From assembly GCF_000017185.1 (NCBI RefSeq), contig NC_009635.1, positions 248,563-312,562 on the forward strand: a stretch of DNA of 64,000 bases. The letters are read 5' to 3'. Both the position numbers and the translations under genes were made by a program. The notes beneath the pieces were generated by a model. That model ran no database searches. It was not told where the DNA came from and saw only the letters and a list, made by a program, of their open reading frames with translations. This document shows positions 1 through 6,661 of the stretch, piece by piece; the stretch's first letter is position 1, and each line of letters starts with the position of its first letter. Source of the stretch: Methanococcus aeolicus Nankai-3 (lineage in GTDB: Archaea; AGJL01; Methanococci; Methanococcales; Methanococcaceae).

Positions 1-101
1 TCTTTTTTATGCCCTTCTGAAAATTCATCTGTTATAAAATTAAAATTGGGGTCTAATCTATCCTCCCAATCGGGCAAAAAATATTTTAATTTATTATTCA
101 T
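1..101 (-). CDS. 5' end of a gene running off the left edge (MNNKLKYFLPDWEDRLDPNFNFITDEFSEGHKK...); product unknown
   Basis: ATG at 101-99 on the minus strand, open to position 1. It is absent from the ORF track because it is truncated. No family recognised with confidence. Confidence 0.35.
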   Translation of the reverse strand, partial: MNNKLKYFLPDWEDRLDPNFNFITDEFSEGHKK

Positions 102-242
102 AGTAAATACCACAAGTATATTGTATATTAATTTAATTACAATTATTGTCAGAAAATTTAATTTTCTCTTATATCAAAACGAAGAGTGGATTTCATTTCA
201 AGTTTTTCATTCTCTCCGCTTAAAATTAATTCTTTAATTTCA

Positions 243-1901
243 TCATGTTTTTTTATCTTCTCTATGTTTTAGTTCAATTCTACTTTTTAACTCGGTGAAA
301 ATAGCATTTGCTCTCTTCTCTAAAAATACAGGGTAATCATCATTCATAATTCCAAAATCATCTAAATCATTTATAAGGTGTGATTTTAATGAATTTGGCA
401 AATCATCATTTTTATCTAAAAAACCTTGAATATAAACTGATGGTGCATTAGCACCAATCTTTCTTTTATTTAAATCCGCTCCAACTAGAGCAATATTTAC
501 AAGGCTATTTTCGTTATCAATATTATTTTTCTTTAAATATGCTTTCGGGAAAAAATGATGATAATTTTTACTATTCGCAACTTTTAACCATGAGTTATCT
601 AAAATAACTTTCCCATTATCTTGAAAATCTTTTGGCTCGTGGTATGCCAATAAACATAAAATAGCCTTACAATAACTACTTCCCGCACTGAAATTTGTTT
701 CGATTAAATCTTTTGGAGAACTTAAATGAACTTTTACCTCATCGTAGTTTGGTCTATTCCCTTTTAAAATTTCATCAATTCTTTTAATATCTTGAGCCAG
801 TTTAGATTCTGTTGAACTTGAATACCTAAATGATAGCGATATTCTCCAAAAGAATTCTTCTAAATATTTTTGTTGTTCTCCTTGTGGCCTTTCTTTCTGG
901 AAATAAAAGAAGTATGCAAAAGGAACTAATAACGAGTCATAAGGTAAAAATGCAGAAACAGGAATACGATAAACTGAACGGAAATAATCAATACTTTCTT
1001 TTAGTGCTGAAATTACATCATCCCAAATATCAATAATTTTCTGTCTGTCCAGTTGTAAAATTACGTTTCTTTTACATTCTTTGTTTTTACTTAAAATAAG
1101 TCCAAGAATACTAAGAATTACGGAACTTGAAATTGTATCATATTTACTTTGGGATAATTCTTCCAATAATGTTTTGAATCTGTCTTCCATATCAAACTTT
1201 TGTTTTTCGTCATAAGTTTTTGCGGACATAATTTCAAAAAGAGTAAGAGTCTGTCCGCCCGTATTAATTCTTGTAAACACTTCTACTGCAGAATCAATAC
1301 CCTCTTTACGAAGAACAATAGTTGAAAAGTCATAGGTTGAAAAAGTTTGAGAATATTGATGTATTTTCTTGAAATGATCATCGGAGTATTTTTCTTTTAT
1401 TTTAAGTAAATTATCATTAAAATTTAATACTTCGTTAAGTGTTATAAAGGATGTTTCTTCAGGTTCTTCTGAAATGACAATTTGATTATCATTATCTTCG
1501 ATGTCCCCATCTAAATTTACATAAATTTCTCCGTAATCAGTAATTTTCTTTTCTCCTTCTTTTTGAATTTTAGCGCCCAAGAAAGCAGCATAAAGAGAAG
1601 TAATTCTTTGTTGCCCATCTAAAACATATTGAATTTTAGTGTCGTCGTCAGGAACAGGTGGAAGTTCAAGATTACCAATGTTTTTGATATTATTTAATCT
1701 TTCGTTTGTTTCCCACAAAATAAAAGTACCTATTGGATAACCTTTCAAAATACTATCCAATAATTTTGCAGTTCTATCCAAACTCCAAACAAAATTTCTT
1801 TGAAATTTAGGGACTTTAATTTGCCCGTTTTGAATTTCTGATATTAAATCAGTGTATTTCTTTGAATCTGGTTTTGGTTGCTTGCCCATAGTATTCCTCA
1901 T
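243..1901 (-). CDS. DUF262/DUF1524-type (GmrSD-like) nuclease, probable modification-dependent type IV restriction enzyme
   Basis: N-terminal DUF262 signatures KFQRNFVWS and DGQQRITSLY. C-terminal His-Me-finger-like block YHHFFPKAYL...LVNIALVGADLNKRKIG, typical of DUF1524. Confidence 0.75.
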   Translation of the reverse strand: MRNTMGKQPKPDSKKYTDLISEIQNGQIKVPKFQRNFVWSLDRTAKLLDSILKGYPIGTFILWETNERLNNIKNIGNLELPPVPDDDTKIQYVLDGQQRITSLYAAFLGAKIQKEGEKKITDYGEIYVNLDGDIEDNDNQIVISEEPEETSFITLNEVLNFNDNLLKIKEKYSDDHFKKIHQYSQTFSTYDFSTIVLRKEGIDSAVEVFTRINTGGQTLTLFEIMSAKTYDEKQKFDMEDRFKTLLEELSQSKYDTISSSVILSILGLILSKNKECKRNVILQLDRQKIIDIWDDVISALKESIDYFRSVYRIPVSAFLPYDSLLVPFAYFFYFQKERPQGEQQKYLEEFFWRISLSFRYSSSTESKLAQDIKRIDEILKGNRPNYDEVKVHLSSPKDLIETNFSAGSSYCKAILCLLAYHEPKDFQDNGKVILDNSWLKVANSKNYHHFFPKAYLKKNNIDNENSLVNIALVGADLNKRKIGANAPSVYIQGFLDKNDDLPNSLKSHLINDLDDFGIMNDDYPVFLEKRANAIFTELKSRIELKHREDKKT

Positions 1902-2208
1902 TTAATATTAAAAGTTATATTTAGCATATAAGTTTTGTTCTTTTTTTAATTTATAAATCATCGTTTTCGGAATGGAGTGGAGAAAACACAATATTATCCC
2001 CTCTTTTGTTTTAGGAAAAATCAAATTTTCAAATTTTCCAGTCCTTATTTTAAAAATCTCTCTGCAAATTATTAAATTGTTAAAAAAATGATTGCACATA
2101 ACGGTTAGGAGATGTGTGAAGTTTACGACCGTAGGGAGCAAATTTGAGCGTAGCCGAAGGCAAAGCTATTAATTTTATTTTATATTTTTATTATATAGTA
2201 ATTTAAAT

Positions 2209-5402: not shown

Positions 5403-5486
5403 TATTGATTCAATACATTCCCAAAATTCATTTAATGATATTGTGATAATTATCCCCTCATTTTGTTCTTGTTTCGTTTATATTAT

Positions 5487-5936
5487 TTATTTATTTATTG
5501 AAATAAGCCAATTTTTAAGTTGTGATAATCTTTCCCCTATCATACCATGCCCAATTATTGCATTATTATTTTTTAATATCTCTTTTCCCCTGTCCCCTAG
5601 TGCCAATTCATAGGTTTTTCCCATTGTTATAAATATTTCATCATAATTGTTATTCTTTAACTCTTGTTTTAATTTTGTAATTACTTGATTTTGTAATTCT
5701 TTTGCTCTTTTGGGTGTCATTACTTCATCATAATAATCTATTATATGGTTTGAATTAATTAATCCATATTTTGCCGATAAAATTAAAATATTTAAATTGT
5801 TATTATTATTCTCTTTTAAATTAAAATTTTTTCTTAAAACTTTATAATACATACCATTGTATAAATCTATTGCAGGAATATTATATTTATGGTGTTTTGT
5901 CTTTGAGCAGGATAAAATTAATAAATAATTTTTCAT
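5487..5936 (-). CDS. small conserved protein, DUF6884-like (LILSCSKTK...LYNG...ILSAKYGL...YDEVM pattern)
   Basis: Motif pattern recalled from the DUF6884 family. Function unknown. Assignment made from memory of the family pattern only. Confidence 0.4.
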   Translation of the reverse strand: MKNYLLILSCSKTKHHKYNIPAIDLYNGMYYKVLRKNFNLKENNNNNLNILILSAKYGLINSNHIIDYYDEVMTPKRAKELQNQVITKLKQELKNNNYDEIFITMGKTYELALGDRGKEILKNNNAIIGHGMIGERLSQLKNWLISINK

Positions 5937-5950
5937 ACTTTCCCTTAATA

Positions 5951-6661
5951 TTATATTTTAAGTATGGTATTTTTATATATTTTTAGGAGCTCCCTTACTA
6001 CGACATAATCTTTTTCTGGAATATTTAATATTTCTTTTATTTTTTTTGAAGTATAACATTTGCCATAAAATAAAGATATAGCACCGGTAAAATTATGTGG
6101 CTTATTTTGTTTTTTTGCCTTATCAAAATCCAATAATTTTACAATGACATTGTTATTTTCCCTATTAATTATTATATGCTTCCCGCCTTGTATTTCTGTA
6201 TGGTCTATTTTGTGCAAATCTAATTTTAAACATTGTTTCATTGTTTGTCGTATAATTTGTAGGAGCTCCCTTTTATCAATATTATCCTGTTTCAAATAAT
6301 CCTTTAAATTAACTCCTTCTAGGAGCTCCATCATCAAAAAATTTTCAGAATAATTATAAACTATTGGGGCTACTCCAAATTTATTTGTTTCCATCATTAT
6401 TGTAGCTTCATTTATTATGGTATTTTTTGAATTAACTCTTGGGACTTTTAAAGCTATATGCTGATATTTAGTATTATCGTTATTATACCATAATCCTTTA
6501 AAAACTACTCCTCTGTGCCCCTTTCCAATAAAATCTAATAATTTTATATTCTGGTTTTTTGTGGTTTCTTTTAGGAGCTCCCAATCTACCAAATTATGAA
6601 TTATGGGGTGTTTTTTAAATTCTTCAATCTTTAAATTATTAAAATCATTAAAATTATTCAT
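5951..6661 (-). CDS. small archaeal protein-kinase-like protein (COG2112/RIO-Bud32-like fold)
   Basis: Gly-rich loop GKGHRGVVFKG, invariant Lys in IALKV, catalytic-like HTEIQGGKHIII, LLDFDKAK. Confidence 0.6.
   Translation of the reverse strand: MNNFNDFNNLKIEEFKKHPIIHNLVDWELLKETTKNQNIKLLDFIGKGHRGVVFKGLWYNNDNTKYQHIALKVPRVNSKNTIINEATIMMETNKFGVAPIVYNYSENFLMMELLEGVNLKDYLKQDNIDKRELLQIIRQTMKQCLKLDLHKIDHTEIQGGKHIIINRENNNVIVKLLDFDKAKKQNKPHNFTGAISLFYGKCYTSKKIKEILNIPEKDYVVVRELLKIYKNTILKI

Follow-up and report, generated by a model that had tools for sequence, protein, structure and literature searches.

A four-gene DpdA, DUF6884, UvrD helicase and nuclease island beside leuS in Methanococcus aeolicus: a candidate compact relative of the Dpd 7-deazaguanine systems

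We analyzed a 64-kb window of the Methanococcus aeolicus Nankai-3 genome (NC_009635.1), with a focus on positions 1–6661, where an accessory island lies next to leuS. The island encodes a DUF6884 protein, a superfamily 1 (SF1) UvrD-type helicase, a 4-Cys PD-(D/E)XK nuclease and, extending past the window's left end, the DNA-guanine transglycosylase DpdA. These four genes are one unit tied to 7-deazaguanine DNA modification. With moderate confidence, we regard the island as a small relative, devoid of DpdB, of the Dpd systems for 7-deazaguanine restriction-modification (R-M), located downstream of leuS between a core kinase gene and PAC2 and equipped with a helicase-nuclease effector. Known Dpd systems are bacterial islands of ~20 kb and 11 genes (dpdA–K), and their restriction half is not understood.

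We searched for homologues of the nuclease with a word-indexed search, which returned 11 clusters, and with an exhaustive profile search, which returned 100 clusters (E ≤ 1e-30) among 1.84 billion representatives. A pattern scan with the nuclease over one genome per species yielded 36 loci among 185 579 species representatives (loci and contigs carry L numbers below), and these loci were mapped by tblastn and jackhmmer. In the pattern scan alone, the M. aeolicus representative gave no match. The archaeal loci belonged to Methanothermococcus, Methanosarcina, Methanoregulaceae, Methanobacteriaceae, Thermoplasmata and Heimdallarchaeum, and the bacterial loci to Planctomycetota, Latescibacterota, Chloroflexota, Bacillota, Aquificota, Bacteroidota, Acidobacteriota, Actinomycetota and others. 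A UvrD gene was located immediately 5΄ of the nuclease gene at every locus (36/36), a DpdA/TGT-family gene was found within ~6 kb of the nuclease gene, mostly as its immediate neighbor, at 32 loci, and a DUF6884 or long DpdC-like gene was present at 31. DUF6884 and DpdA were fused at 22 loci, 17 of them with an N-terminal and 5 with a C-terminal DUF6884. Three gene orders were observed (DUF6884-DpdA-UvrD-NUC, DUF6884-UvrD-NUC-DpdA and UvrD-NUC-DUF6884-DpdA, where NUC is the nuclease), and the linkage is therefore selected, not merely inherited synteny. Outside the four families, the only recurrent neighbors were genes of the preQ0 pathway: QueC at 12 loci, QueD at 7, QueE at 5 and FolE2 at 5. 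Pairwise distance matrices were correlated between the nuclease and UvrD (r = 0.98) and between the nuclease and DpdA (r = 0.60; permutation P = 0.001 for each). An initial annotation, based on the window sequence, had likened the nuclease and helicase genes to an AddAB-like or two-gene immunity module and had grouped them with an adjacent GmrSD-like gene. The pair is instead half of a conserved unit of DpdA, DUF6884, UvrD and nuclease, and neither the 36 related loci nor the sister strain described below has the GmrSD-like gene (a DUF262 gene).

The same neighborhood recurred in distant genomes. UvrD, DUF6884 and DpdA/TGT genes adjoin the nuclease gene in metagenome-assembled genomes of Bacillaceae and Desulfurobacteriaceae; the Bacillaceae module also adjoins an ImmR/ImmA-type regulatory pair in a region that resembles a mobile element. 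In one metagenome contig, the nuclease neighborhood was accompanied by DndB/DpdB, a long DpdC-like gene and FolE2-QueE-QueC-QueD. More distant UvrD-NUC pairs were found beside canonical DpdA-DpdB-DpdC-like genes and preQ0 genes at four loci (L007, L042, L044 and L045). The DpdA-negative loci included L012, L040 and L043, and the L036 contig stops 71 nt past the nuclease gene.

Several individual loci differed from this arrangement. L012 (233–3829 and 8694–10334) has no DpdA and carries genes for an AGOG-like N-glycosylase, QueE, QueC and FolE2 upstream and for a DDE transposase downstream. In L040 (7751–12917), from Methanobacteriaceae, an N6/N4 DNA methyltransferase gene follows the nuclease gene at the position that DpdA would occupy, and UvrD is present as two open reading frames (ORFs). 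Two bacterial loci (L021, 4106–7693; L031, 10970–13361) contain a second, divergent UvrD-nuclease pair beside the first, an arrangement that recalls the two-subunit AdnAB and AddAB enzymes. On a phage-like contig (L008/L009, 3545–5917), a member of the nuclease family occurs together with DUF6884 and thymidylate synthase, and neither UvrD nor DpdA is present within 11 kb. A scan of IMG/VR returned a single locus (L046), whose flanks were not recognizably viral.

Gene domains in the window were scored with Pfam, PADLOC and NCBIfam profiles. The features of the focal region and its neighbors are as follows:

1–101, minus strand: 5΄ end of dpdA (DNA-guanine transglycosylase), first 33 codons; ATG at 101–99; continues past the left edge
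102–242, minus strand: 3΄ flank of the embedded cassette, from the DUF262 stop to the dpdA start; compared with the 32-nt nuclease-dpdA spacer of the sister strain
243–1901, minus strand: GmrSD/BrxU-like DUF262 gene, 552 aa; Pfam GmrSD_N/DUF262, 1.1e-32; strain-specific cargo
1902–2208, minus strand: cassette leader, 307 nt; 1941–2035 is 84% identical to the leader of the sister-strain cassette
2209–3129, minus strand: Cas4/AddB-family PD-(D/E)XK nuclease, 306 aa, 4-Cys, iron–sulfur (Fe-S) type; Pfam PDDEXK_1, 3.2e-19; module gene
3147–5402, minus strand: SF1 UvrD-type helicase, 751 aa, TTG start; Pfam UvrD-helicase, 3.3e-51, and UvrD_C, 2.4e-18; module gene
5487–5936, minus strand: DUF6884 protein, 149 aa, mini DpdC/YaaA-like; Pfam DUF6884, 1.2e-17; module gene
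5951–6661, minus strand: protein kinase, 236 aa; Pfam protein-kinase domain; flanking core gene, right boundary of the island
7031–9970: leuS
10330–11703: proS

The four minus-strand ORFs of the initial annotation (243–1901, 2209–3129, 3147–5402 and 5487–5936) were recovered with identical limits, as was the 17-nt spacer between the upstream helicase gene and the nuclease gene. The annotation had also suggested that a truncated gene at the left edge and the DUF6884 gene might belong to the same island, and both proved to be members of the four-gene unit, the truncated gene being dpdA.

We identified dpdA by extending the window. Over 3353 nt, the window is matched with 100% identity by a Logan contig (L001) that runs past position 1; when the ORF beginning at window position 101 was extended along it, three consecutive pieces matched the PADLOC DpdA profile (3.5e-40, 1.2e-30 and 9e-34). 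The closest public genome is that of a sister strain of M. aeolicus (CP104873.1, also L002), whose nuclease is 98% identical to that of the window. Its dpdA orthologue is intact, and the 426-aa product matched PADLOC DpdA (7.6e-121) and, over its full length, the Salmonella Montevideo DNA-guanine transglycosylase (PDB 7UI4, 3.1e-76). The residues D95, D130 and D256, demonstrated or proposed as catalytic in the paper describing 7UI4, are kept, as is the CxCxxC...H zinc site; H181 is replaced by Q. Compared with this 99% identical gene, the L001 dpdA contains a –1 indel (CCC[T]ATT) at L001 position 3827 and, 400 nt downstream, a +1 indel in an A-run (A6 to A7) at 4226, which together split the gene into three ORFs. 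Either the L001 dpdA is a pseudogene or the indels are read errors.

The helicase and nuclease are an AddA/AddB-like helicase and a Cas4-family nuclease. All SF1 motifs of the helicase are intact, with GPGSGKT, DEYQD, GDDDQAMYRFRGG and TVHQAKGLEF read from the sequence, and its best solved relatives are PcrA and UvrD. In the nuclease, C37, C285-x2-C288-x5-C294, D167, D181-x-K183 and Q201xxxY205 are invariant across 10 homologues, and the Cys spacing is the iron-staple pattern of AddB and Cas4. The nuclease profile had no match among PDB sequences; relatives came from a Foldseek fold search with an AlphaFold (AF2) model (pLDDT 80), which gave ACE1, an Argonaute-associated Cas4-family protein, together with the nuclease domains of AddA/AddB and AdnA and with Cas4 SSO0001 as top matches; Exo5 matched as well. 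Among larger proteins, those closest to the nuclease are single-chain UvrD-PD-(D/E)XK proteins. The initial annotation had recognized a Cys-cluster PD-(D/E)XK nuclease and a likeness of the pair to AddAB, and the domain match, invariant residues, motifs, fold matches and fused relatives all agree with it.

The pair shares with AddAB, AdnAB and RecBCD an SF1 UvrD-like motor, a RecB-family nuclease and the C...CxxCx5C cluster, and Foldseek retrieved AddA, AddB and AdnA. However, the module contains one motor and one nuclease as separate small proteins, with no second inactive motor subunit; it scores far below the NCBIfam cut-offs (addA_Gpos, 111 bits against 708; addB, 19.7 bits against 486); and it is accessory and tied to a DNA-modifying enzyme. 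Both domains also occur in the UvrD-Cas4-like fusions and operons of pfam12705, for which a defence role alongside type III Mod/Res and Dcm has been argued (Hudaiberdiev et al. 2017, PMC5704561), and fused relatives of the nuclease exist. That study reported no link to DpdA/TGT or 7-deazaguanine. In the module described here, the two domains are on separate proteins, which belong to a small clade of their own.

The initial annotation had recognized no named system in the pair, and none of the named PADLOC systems fits it. The similarities that PADLOC detected were generic: Cas4/DruK for the nuclease and GajB/RTasHel for the helicase (GajB, 4.3e-31). Gabija was rejected: the GajB-like helicase has no GajA (OLD/TOPRIM) partner, its partner being a PD-(D/E)XK nuclease. 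The DRT and Druantia labels reflected generic domain similarity, with their partner genes missing. A CRISPR Cas4 was likewise rejected; the Cas4 equivalog TIGR00372 scored 22 bits against a cut-off of 65, no cas genes were present among the ORFs of positions 1–12 kb, and Tandem Repeats Finder detected no CRISPR-sized repeat array in the window.

The DUF6884 protein matched PADLOC PDC-M57A (1e-13) and, weakly, DpdC (1.7e-6, profile positions 49–124 of 319). The jackhmmer searches tie such ~150-aa DUF6884 proteins to long DpdC-like proteins (3e-15), and canonical DpdC itself matches Pfam DUF6884 (PMC11888242). The CxxxK (C10, K14) and LSAxxG (S54, A55, G58) motifs described for DUF6884 (PMC11701544) are kept in 82–97% of 34 module copies. 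DUF6884 is a distant relative of YaaA/DUF328.

We compared the module with the Dpd system of Salmonella Montevideo (PMC10164549, PMC5699537). Both contain a bacterial-type DpdA with the catalytic Asp and a DpdC-related DUF6884 domain, preQ0-synthesis genes often adjoin both, both combine modification genes with genes for a helicase and a nuclease, and both are island-like and horizontally spread. However, the DpdC-like part of the module is ~150 aa and often fused to DpdA, whereas the DpdC family (DUF328/DUF6884), which converts dPreQ0 to dADG, is ~300 aa; the candidate effector is UvrD with a Cas4/AddB-like nuclease, in contrast to the SNF2/DEAD helicases and PLD nuclease of Dpd; and the module spans ~5 kb, compared with ~20 kb, and resides in archaeal chromosomes. 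The PADLOC Dpd models called DpdA alone in the module. No DndB/DpdB match was found in window positions 1–7000 with Pfam, PADLOC or NCBIfam, jackhmmer detected DpdB among the 36 loci only in L007, L042, L044 and L045, and PADLOC gave no DpdD–K match for any island protein. We therefore do not classify the module as a canonical Dpd system. According to reviews of Dpd, DpdB is lacking in ~8% of genomes with dpdA.

Comparison with other Methanococcales located the insertion site. In M. okinawensis IH1, proS is followed in turn by leuS, a 51-aa gene, kinase, PAC2, a further gene (x), FTR, MarR and SurE, with nothing between kinase and PAC2. A contig resembling M. vannielii has kinase, PAC2, x and FTR, and thus also an empty site. 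The same flanks occur in CP104873.1, where DUF6884, UvrD, an embedded cassette, nuclease and DpdA lie between kinase and PAC2. Because kinase and PAC2 are directly adjacent in M. okinawensis and in the M. vannielii-like contig, the module is a true insertion, and in Nankai-3 the island starts 14 nt past the kinase stop codon. The initial annotation had included the kinase gene (5951–6661) in its range, and we considered it as part of the island on account of a PADLOC match (mad6, 3.5e-16) and of its absence 3΄ of leuS in L047, a Methanococcales genome with a 75% identical LeuS that has neither kinase nor module downstream of leuS. However, orthologues occur across genera of Methanococcales, including module-free ones, and the synteny of kinase and PAC2 is kept. 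The kinase is therefore a core gene, and it belongs to the flanking genome.

Within Methanococcales, only the M. aeolicus lineage and Methanothermococcus sp. Ax23 yielded the module, and Ax23 carries it in a bare four-gene form at the same site. The Ax23 LeuS is 76% identical to that of the window and the module proteins are 65–69% identical, values that fit vertical descent of the module within this sub-clade. The pair is thus not universal at this locus in Methanococcales, and empty sites exist, in agreement with the accessory island proposed by the initial annotation.

On the basis of these genes, we infer the following course of action. The host already produces preQ0 for archaeosine. DpdA would replace guanines in DNA with preQ0 drawn from this archaeosine precursor pool. 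The DUF6884 protein, as a putative minimal DpdC homologue, would then modify the inserted base; by analogy with DpdC, it may convert the nitrile to an amide. UvrD and the Fe-S Cas4/AddB-like nuclease would act as a split AddA-like machine that unwinds and degrades unmarked DNA and spares marked DNA, with entry probably at DNA ends or nicks. The assignment of the pair as a restriction effector is favored because the nuclease has the catalytic and 4-Cys motifs and the fold of AddB and Cas4, because relatives of the pair flank clusters that possess DpdB (L007, L042, L044 and L045), because in L040 a methyltransferase gene follows the pair in the place of DpdA, and because UvrD-Cas4 fusions partner type III RM and Dcm (PMC5704561).

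Several points weigh against this proposal. The presence of 7-deazaguanine in the DNA of module-bearing genomes is predicted from the genes, and the restriction role of UvrD-NUC is read from context. The co-evolution signal between DpdA and the nuclease is only moderate. Furthermore, L001, the sole sequence beyond the window edge, has a doubly frameshifted dpdA, yet its UvrD and nuclease genes are intact; a classical R-M system would not tolerate a broken dpdA beside an intact helicase-nuclease. Speculatively, such a state could be tolerable if the nuclease acts on DNA ends alone and the mark serves as a self signal, in a RecBCD-like mode; alternatively, the two indels may be read errors. Finally, DpdB is absent, although in Salmonella its ATPase is needed for preQ0 insertion (PMC10164549), so the helicase may serve modification, not restriction.

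This last point leads to the strongest alternative, which we consider rather unlikely, namely that the module modifies DNA and has no restriction activity. UvrD would replace the DpdB ATPase by opening DNA for DpdA, the nuclease would nick or trim DNA for helicase loading, and the mark would be epigenetic or would shield the DNA from the restriction enzymes of others. Such a role would suit a compact module lacking the ATPase that the Salmonella DpdA requires (PMC10164549), and it is consistent with a pair linked to DpdA as tightly as a cofactor would be; a frameshifted dpdA beside an intact helicase-nuclease would then be harmless, and the family nuclease and DUF6884 also occur together on the phage-like contig. 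However, the related pairs beside the four DpdB-bearing clusters need no ATPase substitute, base exchange would hardly be expected to require a processive AddB-type Fe-S nuclease as cofactor, DpdAs of phages function without such partners (PMC10516641), and the L040 pair accompanies a methyltransferase, not DpdA.

It is improbable that the helicase and nuclease constitute a self-contained two-gene immunity module, a reading close to the initial annotation, that merely shares an island with the GmrSD-like and other unrelated genes. The generic nature of the PADLOC similarities (GajB/RTasHel, Cas4/DruK) and the pairs of L012, L040 and L043, which have no detectable DpdA, would agree with this possibility. 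In contrast, DpdA/TGT lies nearby in 32 of the 36 loci and preQ0 genes in many; the DpdA-less L012 still has FolE2-QueC-QueE by the pair, and the L036 contig ends just after the nuclease. Moreover, the GmrSD-like gene occurs in the window strain only.

A housekeeping repair role, in which an archaeal AddAB-like pair resects DNA ends and DUF6884 and the TGT-like enzyme take part in base repair, is very unlikely: in fold and motifs the nuclease belongs with those of AddAB/AdnAB, abasic and RNA-base lesions retained YfjM, a DUF6884 member, in a pull-down (PMC11701544), the GC content of the module matches that of the host and its genes carry the host palindrome GGAGCTCC (see below), but close relatives have empty sites, the spread of the 36 loci and 100 clusters is sparse and crosses domains, preQ0-synthesis genes adjoin the module and defence cassettes are embedded in it.

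One such cassette separates the nuclease gene from dpdA in the window. A block of ~2.1 kb (102–2208) between imperfect 19-nt AT-rich direct repeats occupies the site at which CP104873.1 has a 32-nt spacer, and the DUF262 gene that it carries, oriented like the module, was found in the window strain only. CP104873.1 contains an unrelated block of ~5 kb at another junction, between UvrD and nuclease, with type IIG methyltransferase/endonuclease genes that include a T5orf172-type domain. These insertions establish a strain-specific embedding of cargo in the module. The leaders of the two M. aeolicus cassettes share ~95 nt with 84% identity (window 1941–2035, minus strand; L002 4894–4986) and precede unrelated cargo. 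The shared leader, which occurs once in the window, may be a common promoter/5΄UTR or a recombination site. We also considered the 307-nt leader as an RNA or the end of a mobile element and rejected both; it had no match in Rfam or IMG/VR, its fold z-score was 0.2 and it was unique in the window. In two Latescibacterota loci (L018, 5941–7764; L026, 3866–7543), a gene for a HerA-like ATPase (DUF87) is embedded, with the fused DUF6884-DpdA gene on one side and UvrD on the other; a 616-aa ORF without a Pfam match precedes it in L026.

The DUF262 protein matched PADLOC PDC-M55C (2.7e-65) and the BrxU-type profile HEC-05 (3.7e-36, residues 16–544), contains the DGQQR motif (LDGQQRITSL) and, in its N-terminal and middle parts, matched BrxU (PDB 7P9K, 8.5e-11). 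The initial annotation had called it a DUF262/DUF1524 protein. The DUF262 part holds (GmrSD_N, 1.1e-32), whereas Pfam detected no DUF1524, even when the C-terminus was searched alone, and the C-terminus had no PDB match. A C-terminal nuclease is suggested by the HEC-05 alignment, which extends to residue 544, and by an HHFFP...N...N motif read by eye; a single-sequence AF2 prediction (pLDDT 34) gave no usable model. Compared with BrxU/GmrSD/HEC-05 proteins, the gene has the DUF262 domain with DGQQR, a full-length HEC-05 match and an embedded position in the same orientation within a multigene system. However, it differs in that Pfam detects no DUF1524 in it, in having HHFFP for DHIYP and in its host system, which is a DpdA module in place of BREX, Hma or type I RM. 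GmrSD-like genes (HEC-05 = BrxU) are often nested, in the same orientation, in BREX, Hma and type I RM systems (Payne et al., 10.1101/2024.01.29.577857), and the different defence cassettes of the two M. aeolicus strains and of L018 and L026 fit this pattern. The DUF262/BrxU-like gene is probably a type IV-style restriction gene that sits in the operon but works independently of it. The frameshifted dpdA adjoins this newly embedded gene; one speculative idea is that a modification-dependent nuclease selected for the loss of dpdA.

That this protein, a ParB-like NTPase with DGQQR encoded directly upstream of dpdA, substitutes for DpdB in the window strain and is not a type IV enzyme is a possibility to which we give little credence: DpdB, too, is an ATPase of ParB/DndB-like type and has a DGQHR motif, a weak NCBIfam DGQHR match (0.0043) was obtained and the gene is immediately 5΄ of dpdA, but over its full length the protein resembles the BrxU-type HEC-05 and PDC-M55C profiles and it also matches BrxU (7P9K), no other module, including the bare one of Ax23, has a DUF262 gene, and the block bears the signature of a recent cassette, with unrelated type IIG RM genes at another junction in CP104873.1.

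The palindromic 8-mer GGAGCTCC occurs 55 times in the 64-kb window, compared with 0.09 expected, and in genes of every kind (sites include 2505, 2739, 2829, 5142, 5986, 6262, 6322 and 6574). Its abundance resembles that of the cyanobacterial HIP1 element. Three copies were found in the nuclease gene, one in UvrD, two in dpdA, four in the kinase gene and none in the DUF262 gene. The initial annotation was correct that the DUF262 gene lacks the palindrome; as a sign of recent acquisition, this proves nothing for the gene alone (0 against 1.4 expected, P(0) = 0.24, not significant). When both M. aeolicus cassettes were pooled, no copy was present in ~7.2 kb, compared with ~6.2 expected. GAGCTC was enriched in M. 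okinawensis (17 against 0.85 expected) and in Methanothermococcus sp. Ax23 (34 against 1.5), and was absent from three other Methanococcales contigs. Because M. okinawensis is free of the module, the enrichment is independent of it, and GGAGCTCC was rejected as a DpdA-related site. In addition, two intergenic arrays in the window (30625–30700 and 59451–59531) consist of 27–28-nt hairpin units with the form AAAA-stem-loop-stem-TTTT, for example AAAATCGCAAAGCGATTTT.

Full-text literature searches on DUF6884, on DpdA together with UvrD and on Cas4/UvrD/transglycosylase combinations gave no description of this architecture, although an earlier one may exist. In the literature that we searched, modification of DNA with 7-deazaguanine has been described in bacteria, phages and archaeal viruses, and not in archaeal chromosomes. 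We tentatively suggest, with less confidence than in the relationship to Dpd itself, that the module is a previously undescribed, self-contained four-gene 7-deazaguanine modification-restriction system that has spread horizontally and sparsely among methanogens, Thermoplasmata, Heimdallarchaeia and many bacterial phyla, and whose AddAB-like helicase-nuclease might read the mark as 'self', as an epigenetic counterpart of Chi.

The module adds a case to the defence genes known to be embedded in defence systems, a rule that can itself flag the surrounding module as defence. If our reading is correct, the island would represent the first bacterial-type DpdA modification of cellular archaeal chromosomes. 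It would also offer a minimal, tractable model of 5 kb, composed of a single transglycosylase, a single tailoring domain and a single helicase-nuclease, in which the writing of a 7-deazaguanine mark in the absence of DpdB, and its reading by a nuclease, could be followed. The reading predicts modified DNA in culturable methanogens, for which the empty site of M. okinawensis and the M. aeolicus strain with an apparently broken dpdA would serve as natural controls.

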